A stretch of 64,000 bases of DNA from an uncultured delta proteobacterium (GTDB lineage Bacteria; Desulfobacterota; Binatia; JACPRU01), in assembly GCA_963712515.1 (NCBI GenBank), contig CAVQIG010000002.1, forward strand, positions 9,408 to 73,407. The letters run 5' to 3'. The notes under the pieces are model-generated. The model saw only the letters and a program-made list of their open reading frames with translations. It was not told the DNA's origin and searched no databases. Both the position numbers and the translations under genes were made by a program. Shown here one piece after another: positions 403 through 44,475 of this stretch (positions within the stretch are counted from its first letter, which is position 1; the number at the start of each line of letters is the position of its first letter).

Positions 403-712
403 GACGAGGGCGCGTTCCACGGAACGCACGTTGGCACGGGCGATCGCAGCGTAGCTCGGGAAATACGTGCTCGCGAAGAACTCGAGCTCGTCGTCCACGT
501 CCTGCGACATGCGGACCATCAGCAGTGTCGCGCCCGCCATGAGCACGAGGAGCCCGGCTGCGATCGCGAAGATCTTGAAGCCAATGGTGTACCGGACGGG
601 CCACTGCCCCGCCGGACTCACGGTTCCGATTCCGCGCGGGGGCGCGGACACACGGTCACGACGAAGAGCGGAGCCCTCACGCTGCATTTGGGATCGGCCT
701 TCCATTTGGCAG

Positions 713-979
713 AAGATAGCCGCGATAAACGGCCGAAATCTACAAAATGACTTCGCGAGTGCCTTGCCGGAGCAGGGTCTTCAGCTCGCAGGCGACGAGA
801 GAGATCGAGGCCGCGGCGGAGGTGGCGAAGGAGCTCGGGCCTTGAAGACAGATTCGTGGACGAGGCAGGTGGCAGGCGAAGGCGAGCGAGTCACTCGAGA
901 GAACCTGGATCGTGCAGGAACGGGCTCACGACGACGAGATCATCATAGTGCTGCCCGTCACTGAGATCCTCGGTCAAGA
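713..979. repeat. direct repeat copy A (~267 bp): degenerate 3' remnant of a cyclase/AAA/TPR-family gene plus the last ~22 codons of a vapC
   Basis: Near-identical (~97% by eye) to 4573-4849; translated + frame gives ...LQLAGDERDRGRG...EVAKELGP, echoing the C-terminus LQATREIEAA...AEQVAKELAG of the 6309-8654 gene; its last ~70 bp (912-979) end with ...HDDEIIIVLPVTEILGQDL on + strand, the reverse complement of the vapC 3' end seen at 4760-4850. Confidence 0.8.
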
Positions 980-1155
980 CCTTGTGCGTGCCGCCGAGCG
1001 CCTACCGCATGCGCTTCCGGTCGGCGTGAACGGCCACGGACGTTCCTGCGGAGCAGGGGCGCCTCTCGACGGCGGCCTTTCTCTTTCACGTATGCTCCTC
1101 TTCTTCTTCAGCCGCGGAGAGCCGCAACCAGGGAGTCGTGATGCTCGTTGTCGCT

Positions 1156-1497
1156 TCACGGCGCAAACATCTCCTGCAACACCACCAAGGCATGCGAGAG
1201 TGTTCCAGGCGACAACCGTCCCAGTCGCCGTACTAGCCGCTCCTGATCTACGGTGCGGATTTGGTCGAGGACCACGTGACCCGCTCTTCCGGCGAATCGG
1301 CACGGAATGCGGAAGGGATACGGGTGACGGCCGGCGGTGAGGGGAGCAACAATGAAGGTCCGCAGATGCGAATTGAGCTCGTCCGGCGACACCACGGCGC
1401 AGGGTCGCATCTTCCGGATTTCAGCGCCCCGAGTCGGGTTGAGATCTACCAAGAAAACTTCCCCACGCTGGACCGCCCTGCCCGTTACCACTTCCAC
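1156..1497 (-). CDS. mazF: MazF/PemK-family mRNA interferase toxin
   Basis: Motif FLVDLNPTRGAEIRKMRPCAVVSPDELN is typical of the PemK/MazF fold; 113 aa; overlaps upstream antitoxin by 4 codons. Confidence 0.8.
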   Translation of the reverse strand: MEVVTGRAVQRGEVFLVDLNPTRGAEIRKMRPCAVVSPDELNSHLRTFIVAPLTAGRHPYPFRIPCRFAGRAGHVVLDQIRTVDQERLVRRLGRLSPGTLSHALVVLQEMFAP

Positions 1498-1733
1498 TCC
1501 GTCTCATCGAAACGAGTGGGTGTTGGAGGATGAAGAAGTTTGTCCTCGTCTCGCGCCCGAAGTAGCTTCGCGGCCTCCTCCCACCCGGCGCGTGCACGGG
1601 TCGCTGGCGCGATGATGATGGCGCCGTTACGCGCACGGACGTCGACCTCGTCCGGCAGGCCGGCCTCTTCGATCAACGGCTTCGGAAGTCTAACGCCACG
1701 GGAATTGCCGATTCGAACGATACGGGTCTTCAC
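1485..1733 (-). CDS. mazE: MazE/AbrB (SpoVT-AbrB) antitoxin
   Basis: VKTRIVRIGNSRGVRLPKPLIEEAGL swapped-hairpin motif; probable GTG start inside the longer ORF 1485..1781; translationally coupled to mazF. Confidence 0.7.
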   Translation of the reverse strand: MKTRIVRIGNSRGVRLPKPLIEEAGLPDEVDVRARNGAIIIAPATRARAGWEEAAKLLRARDEDKLLHPPTPTRFDETEWKW

Positions 1734-1872
1734 GGCCCACCTCGTGATTACGATGTAATCACAGCAGGTCCAGCTCGTCAAAGGGCAAACGGTCTAACGG
1801 CTTGCGGCTGAGCGGCCGCGCCTTTCAGCGGTCCGCTCCAGCCGCTGGTTGTTAGCCGGCCGCCGATTCCGG

Positions 1873-2730
1873 TTACTCGTCCTCAAGGTCGAAGAACTCT
1901 TCATCGATATCAAACAGGTACAACGGCAGCTTCCTGACTCCGAGTCCGCGCTCAACCAACAAGTCCGCAATGGCGGGACCATCAAGCAGGAGGATGGTGA
2001 TCGCTCCTTTCTTGTACGATGCCCCCATGGCGTCCTTGGAGAATCTGCTCGTGGTGAGAAAGACCCCGTGGTCGTACTCTCCCTGAATGGCTCCGCGGAA
2101 TCTGTCGATGTCAGGCCTCCCCACGGGGTTGTCGGTCCACCGCTTGGCCTGAAAGGCCGAACGAATGCTGATGGCTCCCTGACGGAAATCACCGTGTCCG
2201 TCGATGCCTCCATCTTGGCTCTTGCGGGTCACTTCAACGTTTCGGTAGCCCAGGTGAGCCAGAAATTCCTTGCAGAAGTGCTCAAAAGCTCGGGGGGTGA
2301 GATCTCGAAGTTCAGCGACAAGCCGTGTCCTAATCTCCTGCATGTTCGCGTTGACGAAGTCGCGCAAGCTAGTAGCGGGAGGCGCCGCGATACGTGCATC
2401 AGAACTCTGACCGGAACTGGTCGCGGTCGCTGGCGCCACGTCCTTGTCACGCAGTCGAGCACGTCCGGCCGCTGTAATCTTCCAGATTCCGCGTTGGGAG
2501 CCATCGACATGGCCGAGGTCCACGAGTCGCTGTCGAATCCACTGGACCAGGTTGGACCACTTCCGAGTCGACGGGTAGTTCTCCAGGCGCTCTTCCTGTT
2601 CCTCTGGCGTCAGTTGCGGGAATCGCTTGGCAACGAGTGGGTAGATATCACGTGGGCGACCTTCTCCCCCTAACTCAACGAGCGCTTGTAGTAGAGGAAC
2701 CTCGATCTCGGCTTGTTTGGGAAAGGGCAC
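1873..2730 (-). CDS. mrr: Mrr-family type IV restriction endonuclease (Mrr_N winged helix + Mrr catalytic domain)
   Basis: N-terminal wHTH (EIEVPLLQALVELGGEGRPRDIY), C-terminal FEHFCKEFLAHLGY...SQDGGIDGHG...QAKRW catalytic core; gene is visibly lower GC (~53%) than surroundings. Confidence 0.8.
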   Translation of the reverse strand: MPFPKQAEIEVPLLQALVELGGEGRPRDIYPLVAKRFPQLTPEEQEERLENYPSTRKWSNLVQWIRQRLVDLGHVDGSQRGIWKITAAGRARLRDKDVAPATATSSGQSSDARIAAPPATSLRDFVNANMQEIRTRLVAELRDLTPRAFEHFCKEFLAHLGYRNVEVTRKSQDGGIDGHGDFRQGAISIRSAFQAKRWTDNPVGRPDIDRFRGAIQGEYDHGVFLTTSRFSKDAMGASYKKGAITILLLDGPAIADLLVERGLGVRKLPLYLFDIDEEFFDLEDE

Positions 2731-2944
2731 TCAGTTTGTCCTCCCCGTATATGTGGCGCCGCCTAGGGCGCAAGCTGAGCTACGCGCGCTAACGGCCTCC
2801 TTGAGACAGCGCGCGTGATCCCCAGCGCCAAGTTAGGCGTCACTCCTCAACGCTTGCTTAACAACATCTGCAACCGTGTTCCTGCCAATCCCGCGCCGTT
2901 TGCAGTAACTCGACTCAATCCAGAGGGAGAGTTTCTTTGTTCCT

Positions 2945-3217
2945 TTACTTGAATTGCAAGACGGCGCAGCATCTCGCGATATTCTCTCGAGTAACAATTC
3001 TCGCGTCGTTAATGATGTGCTCCCACGTCGCGACAGTTTTTCGCGATCTGTCCGCGGGGGGCGACTCAAGCATCGGGATTCGGCAGTAGACGCACTCCTT
3101 ATCTCGCTGCCGCACCTCACGCTCAAGCCACGCCGGGATGCCCCATTTGTTCATTCGATCGCTCTGCGTAACGCCTAACGTATGGGCTTTTATCCGTAGT
3201 CCGGCGGGCGAGAGCAA
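2945..3217 (-). CDS. small HNH endonuclease
   Basis: CVYCRIP...TWEHIIND (Cys/His HNH-like motif); 90 aa; lower GC; sits between mrr and the dedA fragment. Confidence 0.5.
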   Translation of the reverse strand: MLSPAGLRIKAHTLGVTQSDRMNKWGIPAWLEREVRQRDKECVYCRIPMLESPPADRSRKTVATWEHIINDARIVTRENIARCCAVLQFK

Positions 3218-3239
3218 CGAGGAATTCGGTCGTGGATTG

Positions 3240-3533
3240 CAGGAACGCGCCGATCGATCCGGTGACGGAGGCGACGAAGACGTAAACCGTGCCTCGGGCG
3301 AGCCCGAAGATCGCGCCGGCGGTCAACGTCAAGAGCGCCGCGGGCACGAGCGCGATCACCGCGACCGCGTAGCCGAGGATGAAGACGAGCGGTCCCCACG
3401 GCCCCAGCCGATCGACCCACGCCGCGAACGCCGGCACGTAGCCGCCCGCCCGCCGTCCGAGCACGGCGAGGATCGCGATCGCCGCGAGCGCGACGAGCCC
3501 GCGGGCCGCCGTCACCCGGCTCAAAGATGCCAT
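3240..3533 (-). pseudogene. DedA/TVP38 family membrane protein, N-terminal fragment only
   Basis: LTLTAGAIFGLARGTVYVFVASVTGSIGAFL matches the TVP38/DedA core; homology stops ~100 aa in, where the ORF runs into the HNH gene region. Confidence 0.5.
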
Positions 3534-3654
3534 CGGCTGCTGAAGAGGTGGCGCGGCCGGCCGATGGTTACGATCGCCGACCGGTCACGCGAGGCGTTCA
3601 TCGCTTGCCGCTCGTTGTCGCAGAGCGCAGACTCGAAGTCGAGGCCGACACGCA

Positions 3655-3960
3655 GTGAAGCTCGAAGTCATACGCTGGAACGAGTCGGCGAAACCGCGTG
3701 ACGGCACGCTGAAGCGGCGCCTCGAAGACGAAGGCTTCGAGGTGTTTCGCTGGCGCGACGACGCGGGCGCCGACTATCAGCCGCACGCGCACGACCACGA
3801 TGAGAGCCTGTGGGTCATCCGCGGCGAGATCACGTTCGGCATCGCCGCGAACCGCTACACGCTGAAGCCCGGCGACCGGCTCATGTTGCCAAAGGGAACC
3901 GTTCACACCGCGCTCACCGGCGCCGAGGGCTGCCTCTACCTCATCGGGCAGAAAGCCTAG
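3655..3960 (+). CDS. cupin-domain protein
   Basis: 101 aa; HAHDHDESLWVIRGEITF...GDRLMLPKGTVH two-motif cupin pattern. Confidence 0.6.
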   Translation: MKLEVIRWNESAKPRDGTLKRRLEDEGFEVFRWRDDAGADYQPHAHDHDESLWVIRGEITFGIAANRYTLKPGDRLMLPKGTVHTALTGAEGCLYLIGQKA

Positions 3961-4089
3961 GCAGATTATCGGCGACCGGATACCGCCAGCGACCTGGCGG
4001 TGCGCTTGCGGGGCCGGAAGCCGGTAGGCGGGCCGTCCATTCATCCGAGCGACAGGAATCCCCCCTTGGCGAGCGCGAAGCCGAGACCG

Positions 4090-4539
4090 GGAAAGATGCC
4101 TCGCGACCTTGAAGCCGAAGCCGACGATGAGAAGCCCGATACCGAGCATCAGCATCTCCTGGCCCTCGCCGTGACGCGAGACACGCGCGGCGACGGCGTC
4201 GAGCCACGTGCTCGCCGTCCCGCCGTAGACGAGAGCGATGCCGAAGAGCAGGAACCCGGTCGCAAACGCGCCGAGGAGAAAGTACTTGAGCGCCGCCTCG
4301 TTGGAGCGGACCTCCTGGCGCCACACGCCGGCCAGCACGTACACCGCGATCGACATCACCTCGAGTCCGAGAAAGATCACGATGAGGTCGGTCGCCGCGG
4401 CCATCATCATCATCCCAGACGTCGCGAACAGCACCAGCGAGTAATACTCGCCCCCGCGCACGGAGGTGGTGGTGAGAAAGTCGACCGCCATCAGAACGGC
4501 GAGAATACTCGCGACGCAGAACAGCAGATCGAAGAACAC
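4090..4539 (-). pseudogene. nuoN: NADH-quinone oxidoreductase subunit N (NuoN/ND2), N-terminal ~150 aa fragment
   Basis: FLGLEVMSIAVYVLAG...SNEAALKYFLLGAFATGFLLFGIALVYGGT is diagnostic for NuoN; after ~150 aa the ORF degenerates into non-protein-like sequence overlapping the cupin gene. Confidence 0.6.
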
Positions 4540-4572
4540 CGCGTACTTGTCGACGATGAAGGTACCGCCGAG

Positions 4573-4849
4573 GAAGATAGCCGCGATAAACGGCCGAAAT
4601 CTACAAAATGACTCCGCGAGTGCCTCGCCCTTGCCGGAGCAGGGTCTTCAGCTCGCAGGCGACGAGAGAGATCGAGGCCGCGGGGCGGAGGTGGCGAAGG
4701 CGCTCGGGCCTTGAAGACAGATTCGTGGACGAGGCAGGTGGCAGGCGAAGGCGAGCGAGTCACTCGAGAGAACCTGGATCGTGCAGGAACGGGCTCACGA
4801 CGACGAGATCATCATAGTGCTGCCCGTCACCGAGATCCTCGGTCAAGAG
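4573..4849. repeat. direct repeat copy B (~277 bp), partner of 713-979
   Basis: Same content as copy A; here the vapC 3' end is part of an intact vapC (4760-5200). Confidence 0.8.
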
Positions 4850-5200
4850 ATAGCGACAGCCAGCGACCTGCGCCGCGGACACGATGAGCGAATCCCACCA
4901 TGAAAGGCCATGGCGGTCCTGAATGCCCCACGCGCCCTCGGTGAGCGGGCGATCGAGGGGAAGCGGACGCCAGCTGAGGAGATCCCTGACTTCTTCGCGT
5001 GCGATTTCTCGATCGAGACCCGGCCGAAGCTTTTGCGTGACCGTGACGTAGAATTCATGAAGGACCTGGATGCTCAGCCGCCCTACGCGCGCTCGCCAGA
5101 GGTGAGTCATCCATGCGTTCGCCTTTCCCTGCTTGTCGGCTTCAGACGCATCGCGTGCGTAGACGAGAACGTTCGTGTCAACGAAGGTCGGTTCGGGCAT
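4760..5200 (-). CDS. vapC: PIN-domain VapC toxin
   Basis: FVDTNVLVYA...LTEDLGDGQ PIN acidic residues; 146 aa; overlaps upstream antitoxin. Confidence 0.75.
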   Translation of the reverse strand: MPEPTFVDTNVLVYARDASEADKQGKANAWMTHLWRARVGRLSIQVLHEFYVTVTQKLRPGLDREIAREEVRDLLSWRPLPLDRPLTEGAWGIQDRHGLSWWDSLIVSAAQVAGCRYLLTEDLGDGQHYDDLVVVSPFLHDPGSLE

Positions 5201-5420
5201 GCAGCTCGTCCCGTTTGGGGTAGCTTTGGGAGCTCGCCTTCAACTCCACGGGCTTTCGTCGGCTATACCGTCGCATCGCGTGCTCGTAGTCATCCTCTTC
5301 GAGCATCCGCTGGCGCAGCAGCTCTCCGACGAGCCTCGACACACTGGTATTTTGCTGAGCGGCCCAGACCCTTGCCCACCGGGCGACCTCCTCGTCGACG
5401 GTTATCGTGATGTTCTTCAC
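5178..5420 (-). CDS. vapB: VapB-type antitoxin (ribbon-helix-helix/CopG-like)
   Basis: KNITITVDEEVARWARVWAAQQNTSVSRLVGELLRQRM RHH pattern; overlaps vapC start. Confidence 0.55.
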   Translation of the reverse strand: MKNITITVDEEVARWARVWAAQQNTSVSRLVGELLRQRMLEEDDYEHAMRRYSRRKPVELKASSQSYPKRDELHARTDLR

Positions 5421-5640
5421 TAACACGAAACTAGTGTTCCACGAATCTCGTGTCAATTATAGGCCTAGCGCTTACGAGTAAGATTCCCCCATGATTTCGC
5501 ATACTGAGAGCACTTGGATGAGCCTTGCTGCTCGAGCCTCTGGGTAGCGCCGAGATGGGAGCGGCGAGATGCGACGCGCCGGAGTCGTCTGCCAGTGCGT
5601 TCGTGTTGTCGGCATACCCAAGGGATGCTATTGGCATCCC

Positions 5641-5877
5641 ATGGCTAATCTCCAGGTCAAGAATGTGCCCGAGCGCCTGCACCAACGAATCCGCGCTTAT
5701 GCCCGCCGTAAGGGGCGAACAGTCAGGGACGTGGTCCTCGACGCGGTGAACCGGGAAATCGAGCGCGAGGAATTCCGCGCCCGCCTGGCGAAGCGTTCTC
5801 CCGTCGATCTCGGGCGGCCGGCAGCGCGCACGCTGGAAGAAGTTCGCGCCGGACGTGGGCAGGAACTGCGCGATTGA
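5641..5877 (+). CDS. RHH (Arc/FitA-like) antitoxin of second VapBC pair
   Basis: MANLQVKNVPERLHQRIRAYARRKGRTVRDVVLDAV; 4-bp overlap with downstream PIN gene. Confidence 0.6.
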   Translation: MANLQVKNVPERLHQRIRAYARRKGRTVRDVVLDAVNREIEREEFRARLAKRSPVDLGRPAARTLEEVRAGRGQELRD

Positions 5878-6272
5878 TCCTCGTGATCGACGCTTCCGCG
5901 GCCGTCGAGTACCTGCTTCAGACGGCTCTCGGCCTGCAGGTCGGCGGGCTCCTGGAGGAGGCGGATCTCGTCGCTCCCGAGCTGCTCGATGCCGAGGTGC
6001 TCGCGGTGTTGCGGCGAGAGGTCGGATCCGGGCGACTCACCCAAGGCCGCGCCGCTGAAGCGGTCGACGACCTGCGCGACTGGGGCATACAGCGACTTCC
6101 TCATCGTCCACTGCTTCGGCAGGCATGGTCACTCCGCGGGCACGTGACGGCCTACGATGCACTCTACGTGGCGGCGGCGCGGTTCCGGAACGCCGCCCTC
6201 GTCACCGCCGATGGCCCACTCGCTCGGGCCCCAGCCCTCGGCGTGGTGGTGCACAACGCGCGCTTGATATGA
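5874..6272 (+). CDS. PIN-domain VapC toxin (second pair)
   Basis: MILVIDASAAVEYLL...LDAEVLAVLRREV...YDALYVAAA PIN signature; 132 aa. Confidence 0.75.
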   Translation: MILVIDASAAVEYLLQTALGLQVGGLLEEADLVAPELLDAEVLAVLRREVGSGRLTQGRAAEAVDDLRDWGIQRLPHRPLLRQAWSLRGHVTAYDALYVAAARFRNAALVTADGPLARAPALGVVVHNARLI

Positions 6273-6308
6273 GGCGCTGCTGTCGCCAAGGCGATCGAAC
6301 AAAAGACG

Positions 6309-8654
6309 ATGCGCTGTCCAGCCTGCGGGCACGAGAACACGACGGGCGTAAAGTTCTGCGGCGAGTGTGGTGCATCGCTGAAGCTCGAGTGCTCGAGCTG
6401 CGGCTTCGAGAACGCGCCCGGAATCAAGTTTTGCGGCGAGTGCGGGCGGCGGCTCGCTGAATTCGCGAAGCCAGCGCCAGCGCCCGACCCACGCGCGTAC
6501 ACGCCGAAGCACCTCGCCGAGAAGATCCTCACCTCGCGCTCCGCTCTCGAAGGCGAGCGCAAACTGGTCACGGTCCTCTTCGCGGACGTGAAGGGGTCGA
6601 TGGATCTCGCCGAGCAGGTCGATCCCGAAGAGTGGCACAAGATCATGGACCGCTTCTTCGCGATCCTCTCCGACGGGATCCATCGGGCACCCAGGTTCTT
6701 CGTGTGGTGAACTTCCGCCCCGAGTATCACGCCCGCTGGATGCAGAAGTCATACTACCAGCAGCTTCCGCTCCTCCCGCTCAATCCGGAAGCGATCGCGG
6801 AGCTGCTGACGGATCTTCTCGGCAACGATCCGTCGCTCGCGGGTCTCGGAGGCCTGATTCGTGAGCGAACGGGCGGAAACCCGTTTTTCATCGAGGAGGT
6901 CGTCCTGTCGCTCGCCGAAGCCGGAAGTCTCGAAGGGTCGAAGGGCGCCTACAGACTGACGAAGCCGATACACGCGGTCTCGATTCCGCCCACCGTCCAG
7001 GCCGTTCTCGCCGCCCGGATCGATCGGCTTCCGGAGAAGGAGAAGCGAGTCCTCCAAACCGCGTCCGTGATCGGGAAGACGTTCTCGGAGCCGGTCCTAA
7101 AGCGCGTCGGGGAGCTTCCCGAGACGGAGCTGGCCGACGCTCTGCGGGCGCTGATTGACGCCGAGTTCCTCTACGAAGAGGCGCTCTATCCAGAGGCGGA
7201 GTACGCGTTCAAACACCCCCTCACCCAGGAGGTCGCCTATCGCTCGCAGCTCACCGAGCGAAGAGCCCGCGTCCATGCCGCGGTCGCGCGCGCGATCGAG
7301 GAGCTCGAGTCGGGGAAGCTCGGCGAGCGTGCGGCGCTTCTCGCCTACCACTGGGAGCGTGCGGGCGACGCTAGGGAAGCGGCGAAGTGGCATCGCCGCG
7401 CGGCCGAGTGGGTGGGCCTCAACAATCCCTCTGAGGCGCTGCGGCACTGGGGGAGTGTGCGGGAGCTCCTGGACGTGCTCCCGGAGACGCCGGAGAGCCT
7501 CGCCGAGAGAGCAGCCGTGCGCGCCCTGATCATGAATCACCTCGCTCGTATGGGCGATCTGGAGGACCAGGCGACCTCGCTGTTTCGAGAAGGACGGGAG
7601 CTCGCGACACGGAGCCGCGATCCTCACGTCCTCAGCCAGGTCCTGAACGGATTCGGCAGCATCCGGCTCTATGCTGGGGCCGTCGCAGAGGCCCTGGACC
7701 CGCTTCTCGAGGCGATTCGGCGCGCCGACGAGACGGAGGATGTGGGTTCGAGAGTGGTGGTTCGGTACGGCCTGTCCATGGCCTATTTTTTGGCTGGGCG
7801 GCTCCGCGACTGCCTTGCCACTGCGGAGGAAGGTCTCGGGCTCGCTCGGGGAGATCTCGACCTCGGCGCCGATCGACTCGGGTTTAGCCCGAGCCTCGGC
7901 CTCTCGTTTGTGCACGGCGGTGCGCTGAGCCTGACGGGGCATCCTTGCGAGGGCGCAACCGAGCTCGACCGGGTGATCGAGCTCGCGCGCACGTCTCAGC
8001 AGCTGGTGCCGCTCTGGAGCTCGCACGGTTATCACATCCTTCGCTGTGAGGTCACGGGCGAGGCAGTGCCCGCCCTGGCGCACGGCCGACAGGCGGTGGA
8101 CTACGCGGAGCGGACGGGGCACCAGAATGGGCGAATCTTCGCCTACCTCAACCTCGGGCTCGCGAACGTCTTGAACGGGACATGGCATGATGCGCTCGAA
8201 GCCCTGGGAACGGCATTGACGATCGAAAGGGAACGTCGGCTTTCGGCGCTCGAAGGCGGCGTGCTCGCGGTGATAGCGGCGGCGCATCTCGGCCTCGGTG
8301 ATCGTGCAAGGGCCTTGACGCTCGCGGAAGAAGCGAATCGCCGTCTGCCGGCGGCGCGGCGCCCGACTCTGGGAGTTCTCGGCTCTACTCACCCGAATGC
8401 GCGCTCTCCGTGAGACCCTGGGCCTCCAGGCGACGAGAGAGATCGAGGCTGCGCTCGCCGAAGCCGACGCCTGGCTCGAGATGTCGGGCGCGAAGAGCTA
8501 CGAGCCCTTCCTCCACGTCGAGCGCGCCGAGCTGGCCCGTTTGAGGGGCGACGAGGTCGCACGCGAGCGCGAGCTCCGCGAGGCGCACCGCCTGTTCCTC
8601 GAGATTGGCGCTCCGATCCGCGCAGAACAGGTCGCGAAGGAGCTCGCCGGATGA
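6309..8654 (+). pseudogene. double-zinc-ribbon / adenylate-guanylate cyclase / AAA ATPase / TPR signal-transduction family gene with internal deletion and frameshifts
   Basis: N-terminal CPACGHEN...CGECG x2 zinc ribbons, start of cyclase domain (KLVTVLFADVKGSMDLAE), then jump to the late AAA region and TPR repeats in a second frame (6632-8413), C-terminal tail in a third frame (8397-8654). Confidence 0.6.
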
Positions 8655-8878
8655 AGTGCTCCGGGTGCAGCCATGAGAACCGGGATGCCGCCAAGTTCTG
8701 CGAACAGTGCGCGGCGCCGGTCCGGCACAGCTGCCAAGACTGCGGCGCCGAGCTTCGGGCGACCACGAAATTTTGTGACGAGTGTGCGTCGCCGGTCGTG
8801 GCCAGCGACACGAGAACGCTACCGCCGAATCCCCGCCGCGCCGGTGAGCTCTGCCGGCAACTCGGCGAGGCGGCGTAG
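8651..8878 (+). pseudogene. isolated N-terminal double-zinc-ribbon fragment of the same cyclase family
   Basis: MKCSGCSHENRDAAKFCEQCAAP...CQDCGAEL...FCDECASP then stops; last 40 bp identical (inverted) to 55331-55370. Confidence 0.5.
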
Positions 8879-8939
8879 AATCGAGATTTGCCTTTTTCCG
8901 GTACGTGAACCTTCGTTGGTTCTGAGCTACCCAATCCGA

Positions 8940-10387
8940 GCTTTCTGCGGAGCTCAGCGACGTCCGGCCGCATGAGCGCCGTGAGCCCCACTCCAGATTC
9001 GTTCCACTCGTAGGAGAGGAGGAGCGCCTCGAGGCGTTCGCGGCCCTCCGGCGTCTTCGCAGCCTCGCGCGGGGTGAGATTTCCGAGGGCCGGGATCTCC
9101 TCGTCGAACCAGGCTTCCCATTGGCGCCTCGCCATGGCCTTCACCTGCGCTTGCACCTCGGGGAGCGACTCGATTCGTTGACTCTCGTCTCGCCTCCGTC
9201 TGTCGCTTGCCGTTTCCCCTCGCTCGGCTCGTTCCTCGATCATCTTCTCGATGGTGCTCGTCACGGCTCGCTTGAAGACCACTCGCCCCGCGAGCCGGCG
9301 CTCGATCTCCGAGCGGATCTTCTCGGCACGCTCCCGGGAATTCACCTCGGCGGTGAGCCGCGCACCATCGATCGCGATCCGCCCGAGGGCCGTGTTCTCC
9401 ATGCCCTTGTGCAACTTGTTTCCCGCTCGGAGCCAATTGAACGAGATGGCGCGAAGCTCGTGTCCCTCGCCGTAGCGAGCTTCGGAGAGAAGCTCTTCCT
9501 CCGTGGCTCCCACGGCCAGGGTCTCTAGGGCTTCGAACGCCTCGCGCGGTGACGCCGAGAGATCGAAGTACATCTTCGTGGGGACGAGCGCATCTCCGTC
9601 GGTGTTCGCGAGCTTCGGGAGCCGGGGGTGCAACATCTCGTCTTCGATTTCGAGATAGAGCTCGCGGATCTCGCCTTCGAACTCGCGGAGGTGCTCCAGG
9701 GTGAGCGCCCGTCCCTGATCGACGAGCTGCTCGCGAAGGTCGATGATCCTGCCCCGGTGAATCGGCGGGATCTCGAACGGCGAACAACCGTGGATGATCG
9801 ATGGGCCGTCGAGCGTGAGGACCCTCGCGTAGAGGATCGATCCGCGCCGTACCGTCTCGCTCGCCGAGCGATCGATCACCGAGACTTCCCGGTGCGTCAG
9901 GATGTCCGAGAGACGGAGACCTCTGCCGGGCTCGACCGCGAGAGTCGAGTAGAAAGAGAACCGACAACCGGACGCTGCGAGAACGAAGCGCTTCTCGAAG
10001 TCGTCGAGCTTCACTCGCGGGTCCTCGAGGTAGGCGAGAGCGGGAGGCTCTTGGCGGCAAGCGTCGAGCCTTCGCTTCAGGCTCGCCCGGATCGGGACTC
10101 CAGATGAAGAGAAACCAGGGAACGAAGGTGGTCGGAAAGTCCGGATGATCTCTCGGAGCTACGTCGACTTTCAGACCGAGGAGAAATTCCTCCCAGGCGG
10201 CCTCGAGCAAGCCTTCGCCATATCGATCCAGCGCGTAGCGAAAAAGCTCGCCGGCAAACCGGTCATCCGCGCGCCGCAAGCGCCGCCACTCGAGATCCGT
10301 TGCTTCCTCGCGTACGAGGCAGCAGTGCTTGTACTTCTTCCCGCTGCCGCACGGGCAGGGATCGTTGCGGCCGATCTTTCTTCTCAA
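8940..10387 (-). CDS. SEC-C motif (SecA C-terminal metal-binding domain) protein, one apparent frameshift near 10090
   Basis: N-terminus RNDPCPCGSGKKYKHCC; body continues in second frame (ORF 8389..10014) with protein-like sequence to ~8940; true 3' end uncertain. Confidence 0.5.
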
Positions 10388-10544
10388 GAGACCACTCGCT
10401 TCGCGAGAGGGGTGCGATCGTAGGGGAAGGAGCGGATCTTGCGAGCCCTACATGACGGGTCGAGGAGCAGCGGCTCGAGGGCCACGTCGGCCGATGAAGA
10501 TCCTCCTTCTCGTCCGCCGCGACGTCGGTTAAAAGTCGCCCACC

Positions 10545-13280
10545 ATGAATGACACGACCCGAAGCCTCGTCGTGAGACCCGCAAGACAGCTGATGCCGCC
10601 GCCTCCCCCCGACGCTCCGCGCGGGGACGACGCCGACACCGAAGGCGCGCGGGTGCTCCGCTCGCTCGCGCACCGCAAGACCGGCCGCATCCCGGTCGAT
10701 CTCGTGGTCCGCCACGTGATCGCAGTGACCGCGGACGCCGACTGGCCCGTTCGCCGCGCGGCGATGGAAGCGCTGCTGCGCCGCCTCGACTTCGCCGAGC
10801 GCGACCGGCTGCACGTGGCATCGCGACCCCCCGAAGGCAGGCTGCTCGGGAGCTACACGACGCGCAGCAGGGCGCGCGGCAGCCGGCCCTACCGGAGCCT
10901 CCTCGGAAGCGTCGAGCCTTTGCGCGGAAGCTGCGACTGCGCCGACTTCCTGCGCGGCTCCCTCGGCCTCTGCAAGCACTTGCTGACGGTCCTCGAAGAC
11001 GTCGCGGCTCGGGATCAGGCGCTGCGGCGAGCGGCCCTCGAGAAAGATCCGGGGAGCGCGGGGGCCGCGACGATCGCGTGGGATCCGATCCGTCCCCTCA
11101 CAGGGGCCGGTGATTGGCTCGATCGCCTCGAGATCCGCGCGGGCGACGCGCCGTTCGACGCGTCCCTCGCTCTGCGGCGGCTCGCGCGGCAAGGGTTCCG
11201 CCGGAATCGGAACGGTCTGTGGCTTCTCCAGGGCGGGGGCCTGCAGGAGCCTGCCAAGCGTCTCGCGCTCGTCCGCTCGCTGCTCGCGCTGGCCGAGGGA
11301 GGCCAGCGCTCGGGCCGGTCCGCGGATGTCGTCGTGGAGCCCGCCGTCCGCGCCCTCCTCGAGGCCGAGCGGACCCGCCTCGAGCTCGTGACCGCCAACC
11401 TCGCCGGCGTCGGCCGACTGCGCGCCGCGCTCTCGACGCTCGAGCGGCGGCTTTATCCTTATCAGATGGAAGGCGTCGATAGGTTCCTGGGAGCGGGCCG
11501 CCTGCTTCTCGCCGACGACATGGGCCTCGGTAAGACGGCGCAGGCGATCGCCGTTTGCCACGCCCTCTTCAGGGCCGGGCGAGGTCGAGCGCGGGCTGCT
11601 GATCGTGCCCGCCAGCCTGAAGCCCCAGTGGCTCCGCGAGTGGCAGCTCTTCACGAGCACGCCGATCGCCGTCGTCGAGGGTCCACCCGAAGATCGCCGT
11701 CGCGCCTACCGGTGCTCTGCATCGGGGTTTCCTGCTCGTCAACTACGAGCAGGTGCTTCGCGACCTCGACATGATGCACGCCTTCGGCCCCGGTATCGTG
11801 GTCCTCGACGAGGCGCAGCGCATCAAGAACTGGGCGACGCGCACCGCCGCGGCGGTGAAGACGCCTCAAGCCTCGCTATCGTCTGGTGCTGACCGGAACG
11901 CCGATGGAGAACCGCCTCGAGGAGCTGGCCTCGCTCCTCGACTTCGTCGACGACACGGCGCTCGAGCCCAAGTGGCGACTCGCGCCCTGGCACTCGCGCA
12001 CCGCCGACGGCAAGCGGGAAGTCGTCGGCGCGAGGAACCTCGACACCCTGCGCACGCGCCTCGCGCACTGCATGCTTCGCCGCGTCGCGCAGCGGAGGTG
12101 CTGAAGCAGCTTCCGCCGCGCACCGACACGCGCGTGCCGGTCGAGATCACCGACGCACAGCGCGACGAGCACGACGCGCTGCAACCAGCCGATCGCGCAG
12201 CTCGTCTGCGATCGCCAGCCGACGCCCGCTGACGCAGGCTGAGTTCCTGAGACTGATGCAGCTGCTCACCACGCAGCGGATCATCGCCAACGGCCTCGCG
12301 CAGTTCCAGTTCGAGAGGGTCTGGGACGGGATCTCGCGCGTGCGCCGGCCCGACGAGGCGCTGCTCGCGAGCCTGTCCAGCGCCGAAGCTCCTCGGAGCT
12401 CCGCCAGATCGTCGCGCAGGTCGCGGTCGAGCAGGAGCGCAAGATCGTCGTCTTCAGCCAGTGGCGGCGGATGCTGCGGCTCGCGCGACTGGGCCGTGCG
12501 CGGACCTCCTCGCCGACGCCGGGCTGCGCGCCGTGTTCTTCACCGGTGAGGAGAGGCAACGGCAGCGCACGCGCAACATCGTCGACTTCCACGACGATCC
12601 GAGCGCGCGGGTGCTGTTCGCCACCGACGCCGGCGGCGTGGGCCTCAATCTGCAGCGGGCGGCGAGCTGCTGCGTCAACCTGGAGCTGCCGTGGAACCCG
12701 GCCGTGCTCGAGCAGCGCATCGGGCGCATCTACCGGCTCGGCCAGAAGCGCCCGATCGACGTCTACAACCTCGTCACCGAGGCGAGCATCGAGGAGCGGA
12801 TCGCAGGCTCTGGTCGCGGGCAAGAAGGCGCTCTTCAACGGCCTCTTCGACGGCGCGAGCGACGAGGTCCGCTTCGATCGGGCCGGTTCGTTCCTCGGCC
12901 AGCTCGCGAAGGTCGTCGAGCCCACACCTGGCGCTGTCCCGGTGCGCGAGGCGGAGCCCGACGCAGCGATCGACGAATCGGCGGACTCGGAGCTCGAGAA
13001 GGCGATCGACTTCAGCGATCGAGTCGAGAGCGCGCTCACCGAGAAGGGTTCAGGAGTCGCCGCGGCGACGCCGGAGCGCGAACCCACGGTCGAGCGAGAG
13101 CCGGCGGCCATCTCGGCCCGCCGCATCGAGGCGCTGTTCGCTGGCGTCAAAGTCCGCGCGAGGGCGGATCGCGGCGTGGTGATCGAAGCGGACCCGGAGG
13201 CGGCCTCCGCACTGGTCTCGATCTTCCAGGGGATGGCGGGCCTGCTCAGCACTTTCCAGCAGGAGGCTGCCGGAAGATAG
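10545..13280 (+). pseudogene. SWIM zinc finger + SNF2-family helicase, fragmented by at least 6 frameshifts
   Basis: SWIM CDCADFLRGSLGLCKHLL; helicase motif I LLADDMGLGKTAQAIAV; motif II VVLDEAQRIKN; motif III LVLTGTPMENRLEEL; helicase-C motifs VLFATDAGGVGLNLQ and NPAVLEQRIGRIYRLGQKRPIDVYNLV, each in a different reading frame. Confidence 0.7.
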
Positions 13281-13525: not shown

Positions 13526-15339
13526 ATGGACGCGAAGTCTCAACTGAGTCGTCGTGCGATCGCGGGCGCGCTAGCGACGTTGACTCTCTGCACGGGATGC
13601 TCCACGAAGAGCGCTGTTCCCGCTCCGACGGCCGCCGTCACACCCGCGGAGCCGGCGAAGGAACAGCCCGCCGAGATCCAACTGCCCCCGCTGCCCACGC
13701 ACTGGAAGGCCGAGAAGCCGGTCGGCACGTCCGCCGGCCCGGTCACCGCGGAGATGCTGACCGCCGCCACGAGCTCGCCCGACCGTTGGATCCAGTACGG
13801 CGGAAACTACCGAAACTTCCGCCACTCGCCGCTCAAGAACCTCACCCCCGAGAGCGCCAAGAAGCTCGCGGTCGCGTGGGCGTTCCCGACCGGCACGACG
13901 GGGCAGTTCGAGGCCTCGCCGGTCGTATACGGCGGCGTGATGTACGTGACCTCGTCGTACAACCGGCTGTTCGCGCTCGACGCGACGAGCGGCAAGCTGC
14001 TCTGGCGCTACGACCACAAGAACGCGGAGAACCTGCGGCTCTGCTGCGGCCCGCCCAATCGCGGCGTCGGCATCGCGGGCGACCTCGTGATCATGGGCAC
14101 GCTCGACGCGCACCTGATCGCGTTCGACCGCAAGACCGGCGAGATCGTCTGGAAAACCGAAGTCGCGGACTACAAGGGCGGCTTCAGCCTCACCTCCGCG
14201 CCGCTCGTCGTCGGCGAGCTCGCCATCATCGGCGTGGCCGGCGGCGAGTACGGCGTGCGCGGCTTCTTCGACGCCTACGACGTCAGGACCGGCAAGCTCG
14301 CGTGGCGCCACTACACGATACCGGCCAAGGGCGAGCCCGGCGCGGAGACGTGGTCCGGCGACTCGTACGAGCGCGGCGGCGCGCCGGCGTGGACCACCGG
14401 CGCCTACGACCCCGAGACCGACACGCTGTACTGGACGACCGGCAATCCCGTCGCCCGACTGGGACGGCGACGTCCGCGCCGGCGACAACCTGTACTCGGA
14501 CTCGCTGCTCGCGCTCGACCCGAAGACCGGCGCGCTGAAGTGGTATTTCCAGTTCACGCCGCACGACGTCTGGGACTACGACGGCAACACGCAGATCTTC
14601 CTGGTCGACACCAAGTACGACGGCAAGCCGCGCAAGCTGATCGTGCAGGCGAACCGCAACGGCTTCTTCTACGTGCTCGACCGCACCGACGGGACGTTCC
14701 TGCGCGCCACGCCCTACCTCGAGCAGGTGAACTGGGCGACGATCGACGACAAGGGCCGGCCCGCGCGTGAACCCCGACGCGGTGCCGAAGGAGGACGCGA
14801 AGTTCCGCACCTGCCCCAGCAACCTCGGCGGCATGAACGGCTCGTTCACCGGAGCGTTCGACCCCGACCTCGGGCTCGCGTTCATCCCGTCGACCGAGGC
14901 CTGTCAGGTGTTCGCGAAGGGCATCAGCGCGTTCAAGGAAGGCCTGCCGTATCTCGGCGGCCTGCCGGACACCGTCGACGCGACGGCGGGCAAGGCGTAC
15001 GGAAACATGACCGCGATCGACGTGGCGACGGGCAAGGTCAAATGGCGCTACCGCGACGAGCGCCCGATGATGGGCGGCACGCTCAGCACTGCCGGCGGCG
15101 TGGTGTTCAGCGGGAACCTCGAAGGCGAGGTGCTCGCGCTCGACGCCAAGACCGGCAAGGTCGTGTGGCGCTTCCGCGCGGGCGGGGGCGTGCGCAGCCA
15201 ACCCATCGCCTACCAGCTGGACGGGCGCACGTACGTCGCGGTCCCGACCGGCAGCTTCAGCACGCTCGACTCGTTCGCGGCGGGCGTCAGCAAGGTTCCC
15301 GAAGGGGGCACGTTGTTCGTTTTCGCCCTTCCGCAGTGA
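13526..15339 (+). CDS. PQQ-dependent alcohol/methanol dehydrogenase family (8-bladed propeller), two apparent frameshifts (~14455, ~14765)
   Basis: Signal peptide + lipobox-like LTLCTGC; vicinal CC (LRLCCGPPNRG); W-motif repeats; catalytic-region DVWDYDGN (Asp-Tyr-Asp) as in lanthanide-dependent XoxF/ExaF/PedH types; C-terminal part in ORF 14767..15339. Confidence 0.75.
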
Positions 15340-15357
15340 GTCCCGTCAGTGTGCGGA

Positions 15358-15752
15358 AGGTCTGCGCTCCGATCTTCTTGAGCGGGCTGCTCGCTTGCGC
15401 CGGCCCGAAGAGCCTGTCACCGGCGCCGCCCGCGGAGTCTCTCGCAGCTCGCTTCGCGCGTGACCCGGCTGCCGTCGAGCGCGGCCGACGGATCTTCATC
15501 GGCACGTGCGGGGCCTACTGCCATTCCACGCACGACGTCCAGCGCGACGCGCCCTGGCTCTTCGGCTGCGAGTGGAAGCACGGCGGGTCCGACGATGAGA
15601 TCTTCCGCTCGATATCCGCGGGCGTCCCCGGCACGCGAATGCCTGCGTGGGGCGGTGCTCTGCCCCAGGGAGACGACGACATCTGGCGTGTGATCGCGTA
15701 CCTGCGCTCGGCTTCGACTTGTAAGATGCAGCGGGCCGCGCCCGCGCAGTGA
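15358..15752 (+). CDS. small c-type cytochrome (lipoprotein-like N-terminus)
   Basis: CGAYCHS CxxCH haem-binding motif; LSGLLAC lipobox; immediately downstream of the PQQ dehydrogenase (XoxG/cytochrome cL-like arrangement). Confidence 0.55.
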
Positions 15753-15803
15753 TTCTCATTTGCGCCGCTTTTTGCCAACGGGAGCTCTATCGGGAGGAAC
15801 CCC

Positions 15804-16871
15804 ATGATCAAGCCCTACAGCGCTGTCGGCCTCATCCCGACCGTGCGCGGCATCCACAAGCGCAAGGACATCATGATCAACCTCGAGCACCTGTCGCACC
15901 TGGTGAAAGCCGCCGCCTGGCTGTCCAGCCTCGATTTGCCGGTGCGCCTGATAGCCTTCCCCGAGGGCGCGCTGCAGGGATTCAACGACGAGGTGCTCGA
16001 TCTCGATCACGTGCAGTTTGCGCGCGAAGGCGCGATCGACATTCCGGGCGAGGAGACCGAGTACCTGGGGAAGATCGCCCGGGAGTATGGCGCGTTCGTC
16101 ATGGCACAGGCCAAGGCGCGCCATCCTGATCTCAACGACCGCTTCTTCAACGTCGGGTTCATCCTCGACCCCAAGGGCAAGCTGATCCTGCAGCACTACA
16201 AGGTCTCGCCGCTGTTTCCCGTCGAGCACTCGGTCTGCCCGCACGACGTCTACGACTGGTGGGTGGAGAAGTACGGGCGCAACCTGCAGGCGTTCTGGCC
16301 GGTGGTCGACACGGACATCGGACGGCTCGGCATCATGATGGCCAACGAGGGCTCCTATCCGGAGAACGCGCGCGCGCTGGCCATGAACGGCGCCGAGGTG
16401 GTCTATCGCGCCTCTTACCCACACCCGGGCACCGGCAACGAATTGTTCGAGATCCAGAGCCGCGCCCGAGCGCTGGACAACAACATGTACGTCGTGGCGC
16501 CCAACATGGGAACCTATTACCTGTTCCCCGAGGAAAGCACGCCCATCGACACCTTTGGCGGACGCTCCTTCATCATCAACTACAAGGGGCAGATCGTCGG
16601 GCGTCAGGATTACGGCGCCGGGTCGACTTACGTGAGCGGGGTGATCGACGTCGAGGCGCTACGCGACCACCGGGCTCGCGCGCAGTGGGACAACTGGATG
16701 AAGGACCTGCGCACCGAGCTGTACCAGATCCTGTACGAGCAGCCCATCTACCCGAAGAACTTGTACCTCGACCGCGCGCCAATGAAGCATGCGGAGTACC
16801 GTGAGAAGGTGATCGAGACGCAGATCGAGCTGATGCACAAGCGCGGGATCTGGAAGAAGCCGCAGCGCTGA
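15804..16871 (+). CDS. carbon-nitrogen hydrolase (nitrilase superfamily) amidase/formamidase-like
   Basis: 355 aa intact ORF; IAFPEGALQGF (catalytic Glu), ...MMANEGSYPE..., nitrilase-superfamily architecture. Confidence 0.7.
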   Translation: MIKPYSAVGLIPTVRGIHKRKDIMINLEHLSHLVKAAAWLSSLDLPVRLIAFPEGALQGFNDEVLDLDHVQFAREGAIDIPGEETEYLGKIAREYGAFVMAQAKARHPDLNDRFFNVGFILDPKGKLILQHYKVSPLFPVEHSVCPHDVYDWWVEKYGRNLQAFWPVVDTDIGRLGIMMANEGSYPENARALAMNGAEVVYRASYPHPGTGNELFEIQSRARALDNNMYVVAPNMGTYYLFPEESTPIDTFGGRSFIINYKGQIVGRQDYGAGSTYVSGVIDVEALRDHRARAQWDNWMKDLRTELYQILYEQPIYPKNLYLDRAPMKHAEYREKVIETQIELMHKRGIWKKPQR

Positions 16872-44052: not shown

Positions 44053-44475
44053 CTACAAGCTGAAGACCAAGTCCAGCCTACTGTGGCTCCACACCCAGAC
44101 GCGCTCGACGTTGGGCGTGGGAGGCTTTCGCTTCAACGCCTCGCGGACGATTTCGGCGACCCAGTCCAAGTTCACCCGGTAGGCTTCGAAGCTGATATTT
44201 GCGTAGATCGCGAGCCAGTACGACGGGTACTTTTTCCGTATCCCATCGACCTGCGCCCTCGCGCCACCAGAAATTTCCGTTATGCGTCGCACTCGGAGCA
44301 CTCCCTCTCGAGAACGGTACATTTCGGGTACATAAACGCCGAGGGGCCAGCGAATCGCCTCGCTAACCCCTCGACTTCCCAACTCCCCGGGCCGGACTCG
44401 AACCAGCGACAATCCGGTTAGCAGCGGCATGAATAGGGATACGGCAGTGGGACCGTCGCCGCGCTCCTCGGCCAA
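44053..44475 (-). CDS. hypothetical protein
   Basis: 140 aa ORF, protein-like composition, no recognisable family. Confidence 0.3.
   Translation of the reverse strand: MAEERGDGPTAVSLFMPLLTGLSLVRVRPGELGSRGVSEAIRWPLGVYVPEMYRSREGVLRVRRITEISGGARAQVDGIRKKYPSYWLAIYANISFEAYRVNLDWVAEIVREALKRKPPTPNVERVWVWSHSRLDLVFSL

Follow-up and report, generated by a model that had tools for sequence, protein, structure and literature searches.

At positions 712 to 4848 of a 64-kb stretch of DNA from an uncultured delta proteobacterium (contig CAVQIG010000002.1; the whole stretch is called the window, and coordinates refer to it unless a contig is named), two near-identical direct repeats of about 270 bp bracket a 3.6-kb insert of toxin–antitoxin (TA) genes, defence genes and gene fragments. 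The repeat is a copy of the junction between the end of a vapC toxin gene and the decayed remnant of a cyclase/AAA/TPR gene. Part of the insert consists of an mrr gene and an HNH-like gene that we identify, on the evidence of putative attC sites, as stranded integron gene cassettes. From left to right, the locus contains the following features:

712-979, plus strand: repeat copy A (268 nt), which starts 7 nt upstream of the start codon (704) of a minus-strand gene, hereafter the left gene
785-845, plus strand: relic of the 3' end of a cyclase/AAA/TPR gene in copy A, reading …QATREIEAA/AEVAKELGP-stop, with an internal deletion of ~175 nt
891-979, minus strand: 3' fragment of vapC in copy A, 28 codons and the stop, with the 5' part absent
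980-1151: piece X (172 bp), non-coding, with no open reading frame (ORF), no attC-like or significant fold and no match anywhere
1152-1793, minus strand: minimal mazEF module with its own palindromic operator
1792-1857, minus strand: putative attC of the mrr cassette, with R'' GGCTAAC (1857-1851) and R' GTTAGAC (1800-1794)
1873-2730, minus strand: mrr, a predicted type IV restriction endonuclease gene (Mrr_N and Mrr_cat domains), putative integron gene cassette
2760-2838, minus strand: putative attC of the HNH cassette, with R'' GCCTAAC and a degenerate R', CCTAGGC where the homologous locus L090 has GTTAGGC
2836-3154, minus strand: HNH-like small nuclease gene, putative cassette and pseudogene, with a +1 frameshift near 2965 relative to homologous loci L085 and L090
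3173-3235, minus strand: remaining 3' part of an upstream attC that closes with a perfect R' GTTAGGC (3179-3173), the 5' half having given way to the dedA-like fragment
3236-3533, minus strand: N-terminal fragment of a dedA-like gene (dedA'), with VTT_dom below the Pfam cut-off (E=4e-4)
3655-3960, plus strand: intact cupin gene
4108-4572, minus strand: internal fragment of nuoN, residues ~66-219 of ~490
4573-4848, plus strand: repeat copy B (276 nt), continuous on its right side with an intact vapC
about 4652-4714: cyclase/AAA/TPR relic in copy B, the counterpart of that in copy A
4760-5456, minus strand: intact vapC (PIN; 4760-5200) and vapB (DUF6364), assigned with Pfam

The two repeat copies lie in direct orientation with a start-to-start distance of 3861 bp. 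When aligned, they differ by three substitutions (753 T/C, 832 A/C and 962 T/C), one 6-nt indel and one 2-nt indel, and the longest perfect block that they share is 129 nt. The window contains exactly two occurrences of a 40-mer taken from the repeat, and 100 shuffles contained none. There is no third copy within the 64 kb, and there are no terminal inverted repeats at the repeat boundaries. An earlier note on this DNA had described two near-identical direct copies and called for their alignment; the copies are real, with coordinates slightly adjusted to those given above, and the similarity of ~270 bp holds. Because the copies have diverged from each other, a trivial assembly duplication is unlikely.

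Each copy is itself a composite. Within copy A, positions 785-815 match 8424-8453 (29/30) and positions 820-837 match 8629-8646 (17/18), and both targets fall within the 3' end of a paralogous cyclase/AAA/TPR pseudogene at 6309-8655. The relic is followed by a 45-nt intergenic spacer and then by the end of vapC. At its left end the repeat has ~73 nt (712-784) of relatively AT-rich sequence without a match elsewhere among the sequences searched, and a 24-mer taken from its left part gave no matches in metagenome contigs. The reading of the repeat as a fossil junction, which the earlier note had offered, is borne out by these matches, as is its statement that copy B abuts an intact vapBC, since copy B runs into a complete PIN-domain vapC. 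The vapC remainder in copy A is somewhat longer than the ~22 codons counted previously, at 28 codons plus the stop. The vapBC pair has the makeup of a type II TA system, namely two adjacent small genes with PIN and DUF6364 domains. The paralogous pseudogene begins with a double Zn-ribbon and the first part of the cyclase domain; beyond these a large piece of its interior has been deleted and the frame shifts near 8390. After it lies a second stub, of Zn-ribbon only (8653-8880).

A search of GTDB representative genomes with VapC returned two close relatives, L001 (90% amino acid identity) and L002 (88%), both of which are Microflora Danica metagenome-assembled genomes (MAGs) labelled 'uncultured delta proteobacterium'. 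In both, vapBC is accompanied by the same downstream spacer and by the end of the same cyclase/AAA/TPR gene, with different internal deletions. The L001 relic (5390-5750 of that contig) joins the Zn-ribbon start to the final ~60 codons, and the L002 relic (10440-10560) has MRCLSCDSANREGRKFCAACG fused directly to AAKELGP-stop. Because the relatives share vapBC beside differently deleted relics, the vapC/relic junction is ancestral, and the cyclase/AAA/TPR gene has decayed independently in three lineages. In both relatives the start codon and Zn-ribbon now adjoin the final codons of the gene. This one gene carries three different internal deletions in the window, L001 and L002, and both of its ends were kept every time.

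L002 and the window are collinear on the right side of vapBC. The left gene and every part of the insert are absent from L001 and L002. Two differences between the repeat copies can be polarised (832 and 962): copy A agrees with L001/L002 at both and copy B shows the derived state, but two sites are too few to interpret. Exact-protein look-ups for VapC, Mrr and the cupin in public collections gave no match, and plasmid and phage searches with the block gave only weak gene-level matches to mazEF and nuoN, or none.

The 3.6-kb insert is a patchwork of at least five pieces and not one foreign block. Homologues from elsewhere set sharp module edges, at 1152-1793 for mazEF and at 1851-3126 for mrr plus HNH. 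The mazEF genes form a type II TA pair according to Pfam (PemK_toxin in mazF, E=9e-26; MazE_antitoxin in mazE, E=7e-7) and are 87.6% identical in nucleotide sequence to soil contig L121; this homology stops 4 nt past the mazF stop codon on one side and at the R' core of the mrr attC on the other. The nuoN homology begins exactly at the repeat boundary. GC content is 0.55-0.60 over mrr and HNH, compared with 0.65-0.70. The GC content at third codon positions (GC3) is 0.87-0.88 in dedA' and the cupin gene and 0.83 in the flanking native gene, and it is 0.65-0.70 in mazEF, mrr and HNH (0.65-0.74 when vapBC is included). By this measure dedA' and the cupin gene are native-like in codon usage; mazEF, mrr and HNH are low-GC3 mobile modules. 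None of the insert pieces has a second copy in the window.

These data bear on the gene content and origin previously proposed for the insert. The mazEF, mrr, HNH, dedA-fragment and cupin genes are all present, with the lower GC of mrr and HNH as described, and the nuoN piece, which had been taken for an N-terminal fragment, is internal. The idea of a segmental duplication of the junction with an insertion of foreign DNA stands in part: the fossil junction fits it, whereas the insert, a mosaic of low-GC3 mobile modules and the native-like dedA' and cupin genes, is not simply foreign DNA. Three candidate assignments were discarded. A derivation of the first ~15 nt of the repeat from nuoN, which would have polarised the duplication from copy B to copy A, was rejected because intact NuoN homologues have a polar loop at this place and the homology starts at the boundary. 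A 14-nt match of piece X to L093 is within chance expectation, and mazEF is not supported as an integron cassette, its homologues elsewhere having no attC.

Integron attC sites have the architecture R'' RYYYAAC ... R' GTTRRRY and form an imperfect hairpin with an unpaired spacer. The sites reported here were recognised from these core motifs and from folding. The whole window has nine RBYTAAC motifs, of which six fall within 1688-3179. The site after mrr has a perfect R' and an R'' with one mismatch to the consensus, and its single-strand fold gave z-scores of -2.3 and -4.0. The site after the HNH-like gene has a mutated R' and a fold z-score of -1.15, and the HNH cassette starts at the perfect R' (3179-3173) of the upstream attC remnant. 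The Mrr protein is assigned to the type IV restriction endonucleases by its Pfam domains (Mrr_N, E=5.8e-18; Mrr_cat, E=5.5e-26) and its PADLOC match (mREase_IV, E=8e-22). The HNH-like gene has no Pfam match; it has weak PHROGs HNH matches (E=1.6e-4) and the motif CxxC...WEHI..N...CxxCN.

Close homologues of Mrr number in the hundreds (65-96% identity) in soil and sediment metagenomes, where they occur in unrelated contexts. We inspected 35 JGI loci and three others, and the region downstream of mrr was readable in roughly 26 of them. In the majority of these readable loci an attC directly follows mrr, with R'' RYYYAAC and R' GTTRRRY cores, a length of 60-121 nt and a variable centre. Loci L094 and L095 share an identical sequence that takes in the attC, and they part directly after GTTA. 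The HNH gene is located upstream of mrr in the window, L085 and L090, and downstream of mrr in L084 and L108. The mrr and HNH ORFs with their attC sites are thus found in differing contexts with boundaries at R', as mobile cassettes would be, and these two genes are best described as stranded integron gene cassettes, a point absent from the earlier note. A tblastn search with IntI1 gave no integron-integrase match in the 64 kb, and a generic AAC...GTT hairpin scan for more attC sites returned only GC-rich false positives. On L095, positions 3-98 encode the C-terminal end of a tyrosine recombinase that may be an integron-integrase (75% identity to IntI1 residues 298-329), 360 nt upstream of the mrr cassette and in the same orientation. 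After mrr in L086/L087, the attC is apparently internally deleted to GCCTAAG-TGA-TTAGGT, which leaves the R'' and R' cores almost fused.

The locus is an ordinary product of genome flux in a variable region of TA and defence genes, and most likely a scar of illegitimate recombination. We tentatively prefer a history in which a decaying, variable region underwent a single duplication with insertion, associated with microhomology. The ancestral order would have been the left gene, then intergenic DNA with the decayed cyclase/AAA/TPR relic, then convergent vapC-vapB. A single illegitimate event that required no recombinase would have duplicated ~270 bp comprising the relic and the last 89 nt of vapC, probably by template switching or end-joining, mediated by microhomology, while a break or fork was being repaired. 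The same event would have put between the copies a patchwork, either pre-assembled or serially copied, of the mazEF module, part of an integron cassette array with three sites (HNH and mrr) and native-like gene pieces. In this history vapC would have stayed intact because its 3' end was duplicated. Subsequent ageing would account for the three substitutions and two indels between the copies, the HNH frameshift and the degenerate attC, and the present state would be that of a passive islet, open to RecA-mediated deletion by way of the 129-nt perfect block.

A 7-nt sequence, AGATAGC, marks both ends of the duplicated segment: it lies at 714-720, where the repeat starts, and again at 4848-4854, where copy B passes into vapC. 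The chance that two such boundaries share a 7-mer is ~1.2%, and the match favours a duplication associated with microhomology. The preferred history also draws on the relic homology, the ancestral vapC/relic junction, the sharp module edges, the GC3 split, the attC sites that follow mrr at other loci, and the lack of a tyrosine recombinase, tRNA, Rfam match or terminal inverted repeats. The outer junctions of the insert, 979/980 and 4572/4573, are not attC-type sites. Several considerations weigh against a duplication with insertion. The AGATAGC match was spotted post hoc, and a simple tandem-duplication junction fails to reproduce the observed boundaries exactly. A filler of 3.6 kb is unusual at a bacterial duplication junction. 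The ancestry of the 711/712 junction lacks support since the leftmost ~73 nt match nothing, the DNA upstream of the left-gene homologues in L081 and L082 is unrelated, and neither an empty site nor a genome with the order left gene, repeat, vapC was found among the relatives searched. The structure was read from the assembled sequence.

A possible but clearly less probable explanation is homologous capture, in which DNA from a related strain, or an excised circle with its own repeat copy, recombined through that homology by a Campbell-type single crossover or by homology-facilitated illegitimate recombination, so that one copy is the recipient's and the other the donor's. Direct repeats around an insert are the classic product of such an event, the ~1-3% divergence of the copies and the variation of the neighbourhood among close relatives are consistent with it, and the derived state of the vapBC-attached copy B at 832 and 962 would fit a diverged donor. 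However, two polarised sites are not significant, the AGATAGC microhomology is not predicted, and the origin of the junction between the nuoN fragment and the repeat is merely shifted to an unseen donor, no sequence like which was found in the relative, metagenome, plasmid and phage searches. It is unlikely that a longer stretch with the repeat and vapBC was duplicated in tandem and that later deletions and insertions reduced it to copy A and unrelated debris. Tandem duplications bounded by microhomology are common, and decay is visible nearby (the cyclase pseudogene at 6309-8655, the Zn-ribbon stub at 8653-8880 and the frameshifted HNH), but this route requires many more events and would have to accommodate insert pieces that occur only once in the 64 kb.

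We regard as quite improbable that the structure is an assembly artefact produced by a chimeric join or by mis-resolution of a repeat during metagenome assembly. The source looks like a MAG, its nearest relatives being Microflora Danica MAGs, several genes are frameshifted and the exact proteins are missing from public collections. Against this stand the 6-nt indel and three substitutions that separate the copies, the continuous composition, and the fact that the novel junctions 979/980 and 4572/4573 share no repeat able to mislead an assembler. Even less credence is given to an active mobile element, either one mediated by an integrase or a defence islet excisable through recombination. It would explain the flanking direct repeats around defence and TA cargo, and the attC sites could be used by a trans-acting IntI; but the window holds no integrase, transposase or tRNA, the outer junctions are neither attC nor GTT-type, one attC is truncated and another degenerate, dead gene fragments are among the cargo, and no further copies were found in the metagenome, plasmid and phage searches.

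The earlier proposal that the two copies could recombine is sound as geometry, the 129-nt perfect block being available. RecA-mediated deletion would plausibly remove 3861-3869 bp and leave vapBC intact. Nothing shows that the block moves. It is highly doubtful that the locus represents a recombinase-free, 'hitch-hiking' defence islet that spreads among related genomes by homologous recombination, with the conserved vapC 3' end and the relic as a portable handle and a RecA-generated circle as its exit. If this were true, the ends of TA genes would be landing pads for defence cargo.

Several further observations concern the surroundings of the locus and related contigs. Two short-read contigs (L123 and L124; ERR15604025 and ERR15604040) carry a second antitoxin/PIN pair with ~98% nucleotide identity to 5595-6325 of the window, and their DNA to the left of 5595 is unrelated to it, so close relatives have a different neighbour there. 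L081, the contig with a close left-gene homologue, encodes a LigD primase-polymerase and an ATP-dependent ligase at 14499-16582, and given these genes end-joining repair may exist in the lineage. Within the window, ORFs at 8389-10387 on the minus strand have a SEC-C motif and a weak Xre/MbcA/ParS antitoxin C-terminal domain. After them, at 10545-12100 on the plus strand, lies a SWIM and SNF2-like helicase gene that is apparently split across frames. A hairpin at 44361-44423, in a stretch poor in long ORFs, carries a tRNA T-arm-like GGTTCGAGTCC motif; neither ARAGORN nor Rfam called a tRNA there. No Rfam families were matched, and the promoter scan returned nothing.

How variable defence and TA regions are built in an uncultured soil lineage can be seen here in a clean, well-delimited example. 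Integron cassettes lie stranded outside any integron and are joined to pieces of native genes, and the interrupted toxin gene would have been preserved by a long duplication of its target. The mrr gene and the small HNH gene circulate as integron cassettes in soils and sediments. The recognition of the stranded mrr/HNH cassettes is the one new point; no new kind of element or mechanism is revealed, and the locus is of use as an annotated case.

Among known systems, the mrr/HNH piece is closest to a set of clustered attC sites without an integron-integrase (CALIN), which is defined by two or more attC sites that share a strand and lie within 4 kb (Cury et al. 2016, PMC4889954). By this definition it is a small, decayed CALIN-like fragment, judged from motifs and folds: the putative sites at 1792-1857 and 2760-2838 and the remnant at 3173-3235 all have minus sense and lie within 1.5 kb, with no intI in the window. 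The recurrence of the HNH and mrr cassettes in other orders and contexts is also CALIN-like, and their defence cargo resembles that known from chromosomal integrons (bioRxiv 10.1101/2024.07.02.601686). Cassette insertion outside integrons has been documented as well (SALIN/attG; bioRxiv 10.1101/2022.09.11.507474). The locus differs from a CALIN in that the fragment makes up no more than ~1.45 kb of an insert of 3.6 kb. Of its attC sites, one is truncated and another carries a mutated R', and the outer repeats bear no relation to attC.

Integrase-borne islands with attL and attR likewise have direct repeats that bracket accessory, lower-GC defence and TA genes. In contrast to a short att core, however, the repeats here are 268-276 bp of ordinary local sequence, and the window contains no tRNA or tmRNA and no tyrosine recombinase. 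The locus also differs from insertion-sequence-flanked and composite transposons, since the repeat is a gene relic plus a vapC 3' end, with no inverted repeats at its boundaries and no transposase. Products of microhomology-mediated break-induced replication (MMBIR), of fork stalling and template switching (FoSTeS) or of homology-facilitated illegitimate recombination share with this locus a duplicated target that flanks fragments from multiple sources, with microhomology at the boundaries; here these mechanisms are deduced from junction geometry only. Compared with other variable TA and defence regions, the locus holds nothing unusual, its TA genes being of standard families, and it resembles them in the clustering of mazEF, two PIN-type pairs and Mrr and in its turnover among close relatives.

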